The position numbers were made by a program, and so were the translations under genes. A DNA stretch of 64,000 bases from Octopus vulgaris (Eukaryota). The notes beneath the pieces were generated by a model, which had not been told where the DNA came from, ran no database searches, and saw only the letters and a list, made by a program, of their open reading frames with translations. The stretch spans positions 204,042,001-204,106,000 of the forward strand of contig OX597815.1 in NCBI GenBank assembly GCA_951406725.2, written 5' to 3'. This document shows, piece by piece, positions 16,755-17,052 of the stretch (within the stretch, counting starts at the first letter, position 1; each line of letters begins with the position of its first letter).

Positions 16755-17048
16755 AACATTATTGGTGAATTGAAGAAATGGAGCTGAACGCAATTGAACA
16801 GAAATCGTTTTATTTCATTCTACACGTGTTTCGAATGAAATAAAACGATTTCTGTTCAATCTGCGTTCAGCTCCATTTCTTCAATTCACCAATAATGTTT
16901 TAATTTCAATTATCCGCACCAACGCACGGTTGCAACACCATATGGTTGTACCTCCAACCGTGCTGTTTACTGCTGTGATTTTTGCTACTAAGGTATCGGT
17001 TAAACTTTTGATTAATCTACTACAAGATTATTCATCTTTCTATTTCAC

Positions 17049-17052
<4 letters not shown>
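16755..17052 (+). mobile_element. PLE-like fold-back insertion in (TA)n, present only in copy 2
   Basis: 66-bp inverted arms (16755-16820, 16833-16899) around a 12-bp spacer; absent from the homologous (TA)n at ~3874-3916. Confidence 0.8.

Follow-up and report, generated by a model that had tools for sequence, protein, structure and literature searches.

The window analysed here, a 64,000-nucleotide stretch of Octopus vulgaris DNA, contains a fold-back insertion in a (TA)n tract whose long arm begins where a hammerhead ribozyme is predicted to cut. A sequence-only reading of this locus proposed that the long arm marks an RNA 5' end made by self-cleavage, and that the 5' ends of related copies would pile up at the same point. 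The question is therefore whether the insertion carries a footprint of ribozyme processing during retrotransposition. Element positions are numbered throughout from 0, the first base after the GUA triplet, i.e. after the predicted cleavage site.

Table 1. The insertion, its target and the adjoining scaffold gap, in window coordinates
Feature	Position	Strand	Remarks
Left part of (TA)n target	16731..16754	.	read from sequence; empty in copy 1 at 3874
Short (inverted) arm	16755..16820	-	element ~+66 down to 0; bounded on the outside by the fixed +54..+69 site of the family
Short-arm continuation through the predicted cleavage site to -12	16821..16832	-	hammerhead GAAA, palindromic stem III, GUA triplet
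3-nt overlap (microhomology), common to both arms	16833..16835	.	
Long arm, 220 bp	16833..17052	+	element 0 to ~+219; stem I 3' strand and ~150-nt tail
Right part of (TA)n target	17053..17087	.	
100-N scaffold gap between two ~13-kb copies	13474..13573	.	likely false tandem duplication

The 66-bp arm at 16755-16820 matches, in reverse complement and with a single 1-nt gap, the opening 67 nt of the long arm, and the 12-bp spacer at 16821-16832, which reads GAAACACGTGTA on the minus strand, separates it from the long arm at 16833; this is the anatomy originally described, and the coordinates agree. The spacer had been taken for the 3' half of a hammerhead, which is all of the motif that the window holds, and longer copies of the element indeed have the same sequence directly 5' of the long arm, with the remainder of the motif upstream. 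The inverted arm of the insert crosses the predicted cleavage site and reaches -12, in agreement with the suggestion that it came from an uncleaved template. The claim that the long arm starts exactly at the site stands less firmly: it does begin at 16833, but the short arm, if extended, would go on with GAA, the same three letters that open the long arm, so that the join is a 3-nt overlap and could lie anywhere from 0 to +3.

Copy 1 (712-13473) and copy 2 (13574-26733) both abut the 100-N gap and are 97.7-99.4% alike over three long blocks and 93.8% alike over a 0.7-kb block. Because they flank the gap, they probably represent two haplotypes that the assembly placed one after the other. The (TA)n counterpart in copy 1, at 3874, lacks the insert, as had been noted in calling the insertion recent, and we infer that the insert is a heterozygous presence/absence variant.

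Exact matches to a 27-mer from the long arm number 1,593 genome-wide, and its reversed control has none. Tandem copies have a period of 3,624 bp. The full unit (3.62 kb) contains an open frame of 899 codons, and the window insert corresponds to the 3' end of this Penelope-like element; its description as a retrotransposon product was thus correct. A protein search with the 899-aa product retrieved 411 relatives, the best 120 of the 411 at 29-42% identity, and telomerase reverse transcriptases were the top five Foldseek matches (best E 3e-8) of its AlphaFold model (mean pLDDT 71.9). Pfam searches with the protein and six relatives, and PDB sequence searches, returned nothing useful, so the identity of the element rests on motifs and the fold search. 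Features of endonuclease-bearing (EN+) Penelope-like elements are present, namely a single ORF with a telomerase-like reverse transcriptase, tandem or partial-tandem units, an inverted 5'-truncated copy and a tail, here of ~150 nt. An inverted piece adjoins 64 of the 92 long arms in a position-ordered sample, and (TA)4 lies just downstream of long arms in 93 of 94 loci. A putative C-terminal GIY-YIG-type motif, AVY...YVG...R, aligns with IY...YIG...R of relatives; the region has no Pfam profile match and no Foldseek fold match.

Within the protein, the Hydra-clade motifs SDKT, RWL, CNLC..E and N..CPH form blocks that agree, by eye, with Hydra proteins in the PMC8557442 supplement. The CxCX5C linker is missing from it and present in 13 of 15 aligned relatives, one with longer spacing, the two others being sequences that ended early. 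DKT, RW, CxxC and CxH together with (TA)n targets fit the Hydra clade, but as CxCX5C is missing we call the element only Hydra-type; by motifs, fold match and (TA)n targets, the parent of the window insert appears to be a Hydra-type Penelope-like retrotransposon. Hydra-clade elements as described in PMC8557442, including Hydra-1_Obim of Octopus bimaculoides, share with it a C-terminal GIY-YIG motif (putative in the octopus protein), DKT for DKG, an RW motif, CxxC and CxH around conserved E and N, (TA)n targets, a hammerhead in the pLTR, and an inverted 5'-truncated copy with a tail. They are generally <3 kb, against 3.62 kb here, and carry RWK, against RWL here; a recognisable CxCX5C linker is lacking in the octopus protein, and two low-complexity stretches of its model at pLDDT <50 (487-563 and 635-762) also set it apart from that clade. 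The tail of ~150 nt compares with 30-40 nt in PMC8557442 and PMC11167929, and the family is best read as showing the architecture already known from Penelope elements, except that its tail is unusually long. The possibility that the element carries an internal (TA)n tract of its own was rejected: the reference sequence had extended into flanking DNA, and at the tandem junction there is only a short AT-rich site.

Full copies carry a complete minimal type I hammerhead upstream of the long-arm start, in the order stem I, CUGAAGA, stem II, GAAA, stem III, GUA. Stem I forms 9 of 10 pairs; stem II has 10 pairs and a 33-nt loop and is present in the MFE fold; stem III has 2 pairs and a palindromic loop, with a self-duplex of -10.3 kcal/mol. 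Longer copies had been expected to show CATTC, CTGANGA and a stem II, and the last two are there, the CUGANGA heptamer being intact in 65 of 69 distinct copies; the 5' strand of stem I is UAUUUUCUUC, not CAUUC. As a monomer the hammerhead fold (-7.3 kcal/mol, against an MFE of -15.9 kcal/mol) is not the most stable one, and a weak monomer fold with a self-pairing stem III is expected for dimer-type motifs as portrayed in PMC4209133. The minimal or atypical hammerheads of Penelope-like elements described there share the type I core, G10.1-C11.1 pair, long interrupted helix II and short palindromic helix III suited to dimers, and pairs of motifs on opposite strands 100-700 bp apart are noted there as well. 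Unlike them, the octopus motif has a 33-nt loop II and is a predicted ribozyme only, with no Rfam hammerhead match in the window or in a full copy; compared by eye, it also differs from the Hydra-1_Obim row in the PMC8557442 supplement. The hammerhead of this family looks intact in sequence. Stem I varies across copies: in older ones the 5' strand is one U shorter and there is C for A at +5, and in the youngest copies both changes are present and the stem is extended.

We sampled copies in order of position, taking 100 of the 1,593 27-mer places, those listed first (one contig), plus one further locus, L064. We dropped L052 as a duplicate locus, L061 and L062 as a tandem array, a junction repeated in L092, and five matches that continued into a complete unit or past the end of the locus. 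Loci ranked by likeness to the query, which are for that reason enriched for joins near the site, were kept out of the main counts except for L064; five of them also matched the -2..+9 pattern described below. Long arms (n=92) extend 5' of -2 in 61 cases, end at -2..+3 in one and end further 3' in 30. Short arms (n=58) cross the site in 50 cases, end at -2..+3 in two and stop before it in six. Thus, most integrated cDNA is copied across an intact hammerhead, and the anticipated pile-up of 5' ends at the cleavage site is absent, a possible small excess aside; junctions are largely random relative to the site.

Ends were also counted base by base. A search pattern that required mismatches at both -6 and -3 had 140 matches, of which 100 were listed; eight were dropped, the element continuing upstream. 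The remaining 92 arms end at -2 to +9 in numbers of 7, 9, 10, 12, 4, 8, 6, 7, 8, 10, 7 and 4, a flat distribution among the matches listed (chi-square p=0.70). Position 0 holds 10 of these 92 against 7.7 expected (p=0.24, again among the matches listed), and -1..+1 holds 31 against 23 (p=0.039, uncorrected, one of four windows tried, and including both arms of some joins). A wider pattern, -16..+20, which is unable to capture the window's own junction, had 236 matches (100 listed, 98 scored): among those scored, nine end at -1, three at 0, eight at -11 and six at -10. A further 88 arms among the matches listed of the 236, read by eye (89 new rows minus one internal deletion), gave none at -1, none at 0 and one at +1. 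Genome-wide, exact-end patterns found 14 arms at 0 and 4 each at +4 and -5; capture rates are unmatched between these patterns, so the excess at 0 is at most about 2-fold, on an estimated ~1% of arms. A small excess of ends at the cleavage site is possible. A sharp truncation hot spot at the hammerhead was rejected, since there is a downstream trough and no peak at the cut; uncorrected end densities are 130 per 27 nt at -48..-22, 236 per 37 nt at -16..+20 and 33 per 16 nt at +22..+37.

These counts bear directly on the model in which synthesis of the long arm stopped at the 5' end of a hammerhead-cleaved RNA, while another RNA, left uncleaved, was the template of the short arm. The window junction is compatible with position 0, the hammerhead looks intact, and the model gains from the 14 arms at 0 against 4 and 4 at the two controls, from the mild excess at -1..+1, from the 9 of 98 at -1 in the wider pattern, and from the 7 of 16 near-symmetric joins that fall at -2..+1. 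That last proportion has p=0.26, however; ends are flat over -2..+9, -11 is as common as -1 in the wider pattern among the matches listed, and the 88 further arms include none at -1 or 0. The register of the window junction is explained by the 3-nt overlap, and PMC11167929 reports that in Anolis no RNA-seq reads had a start or an end at the site. Four contig sets presumed to derive from RNA showed no positions where many molecules start or stop, a signal that contigs would not preserve, so they weigh on neither side. With ends flat around the site and most arms crossing it, we consider this origin of the long arm distinctly unlikely.

The arms are fixed at their outer ends and scattered at their inner ends across the family. 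The outer end lies at +54..+69 in 58 of the 64 inverted pieces that adjoin a long arm, and long arms end 3' at +211..+223, ranges that are both blurred by chance TA matches, with the 27-mer anchor forcing long-arm 3' ends beyond +186. Each of the two sites ends in a short AT-rich motif, and the long arm of the window insert ends at the second. Of 58 joins, 36 overlap (16 by at least 3 nt), 3 are blunt and 19 have extra bases; in 31 the short arm extends 5' beyond the long arm by >10 nt, in 15 the reverse holds, and in 12 the two lie within 10 nt. In 12 joins, mostly non-overlapping, the long arm stops 3' of +50. Nine short arms in the -2..+9 pattern set had no partner found. The ends of paired arms are correlated, 18 of 58 lying within 20 nt of each other versus 4.4 in shuffles (0 of 20,000 shuffles), which fits one shared RNA template. 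Older copies show near-symmetric joins more often (12 of 27 versus 6 of 31, p=0.05), so later loop loss may account for part of the symmetry.

We therefore favour, as the likely account, a 5'-truncated, head-to-head Hydra-type copy made from uncleaved RNA, with two cDNAs primed ~150 nt apart and joined at a 3-nt microhomology, the start of the long arm at the site being chance. Because genomic copies show no pile-up at the predicted site, the match in the window insert is likely a coincidence. The endonuclease would cut both strands of (TA)n, each target end would prime reverse transcription, one at ~+216 and one at ~+63, both cDNAs would stop early, and their ends would be joined by microhomology-mediated repair.

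More unlikely still than a cleaved 5' end is self-priming, in which one cDNA or an antisense RNA folds at a palindrome and copies itself, the endonuclease resolving the product at the +63 site; a model of this type is proposed in PMC3846280, and endonuclease resolution of the tail is suggested in PMC8557442. The correlated arm ends would suit such snap-back synthesis, as would arm joins that recur within the 8-nt stem III palindrome and give perfect fold-backs (L002, L027, C10:58816784 and C12:5960439), but near-symmetric joins owe part of their symmetry perhaps to loop loss, and in 31 of 58 pairs each arm contains something missing from the other, sequence in the case of the short arm and the tail in the case of the long arm; the window copy is of this type. 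One folded-back cDNA cannot give this class, which argues for two priming events, one per target end; two-ended priming in this family, read here from DNA scars alone, would account for it. An assembly or read artefact (a fold-back chimera) is highly improbable, for although a false duplication is likely at the N gap of the window, the same two outer ends recur at many loci with different inner joins and different flanks, and the arms of the window insert differ by one base. The insert is a real, recent and ordinary Penelope-type insertion.

In LINE-1 twin priming, the second target end primes internally, leaving an inverted 5' piece and a microhomology join. The 12 of 58 joins in which the long arm stops 3' of +50 are like its products; unlike them, the second site is fixed here and most arm pairs overlap, giving inverted duplications. 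Two-site priming on uncleaved RNA has a counterpart in a Poseidon-clade protein, which in vitro cuts and extends both DNA strands, initiates internally at two positions bounding the tail and can dispense with hammerhead cleavage (PMC11167929). The Poseidon element PAc of Anolis carolinensis resembles the octopus family in its two internal starts bounding the tail, AT-rich targets and uncleaved RNA as main template; its starts are adjacent and inside the ORF, whereas here ~150 nt separates them and both precede the first ATG (~+267). Copying mostly across an intact ribozyme is in line with the PAc result in vitro.

A young and abundant family such as this one provides a genomic test of the role of the hammerhead in Penelope-like elements, and the answer is mostly negative. 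The long tail clearly separates the two start sites, which makes the family convenient for studying how inverted Penelope insertions form, and together with the paired arm ends it is modestly interesting. More tentatively, and with some doubt, the family might be a ~1,600-copy in vivo record of a Penelope reverse transcriptase dimer carrying out two-ended priming on one uncleaved RNA, from two fixed starts 150 nt apart, the cDNAs often stopping together, with a minority (~1% of arms or less, perhaps including the window insert) coming off hammerhead-cleaved ends. Literature on Penelope twin priming, pLTR palindromes, Nematis and octopus hammerheads, mostly outside subscription papers, contained no report of two-ended priming or paired arm ends in Penelope-like elements.

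Several further observations concern the family and the window. 5' ends cluster at -158..-187 (L031, L039, L050, L077, L087 and L098), with 12 of 150 in the -180..-161 bin, a density equal to that of the hammerhead region; the cluster could reflect a transcription start, or an NcoI-like palindrome acting as microhomology. Four loci (L030, L043, L100 and L056) have several hundred to ~1,100 bases of other sequence between the arms, and in L100 both arms end at ~-1. In the tandem unit L061, a long-range RNA stem is predicted between +20..+45 and +262..+290; it encloses the two priming sites and takes in the first ATG, and 5' ends are scarce at +22..+37. Elsewhere in the window, a different abundant short interspersed repeat family is present at 15823-16200, at 17910-18096 and in 12 or more further places, with a 184-bp tandem pair among its copies, and a ~420-bp region at 60594-61017 matches its own reverse complement at 90%.
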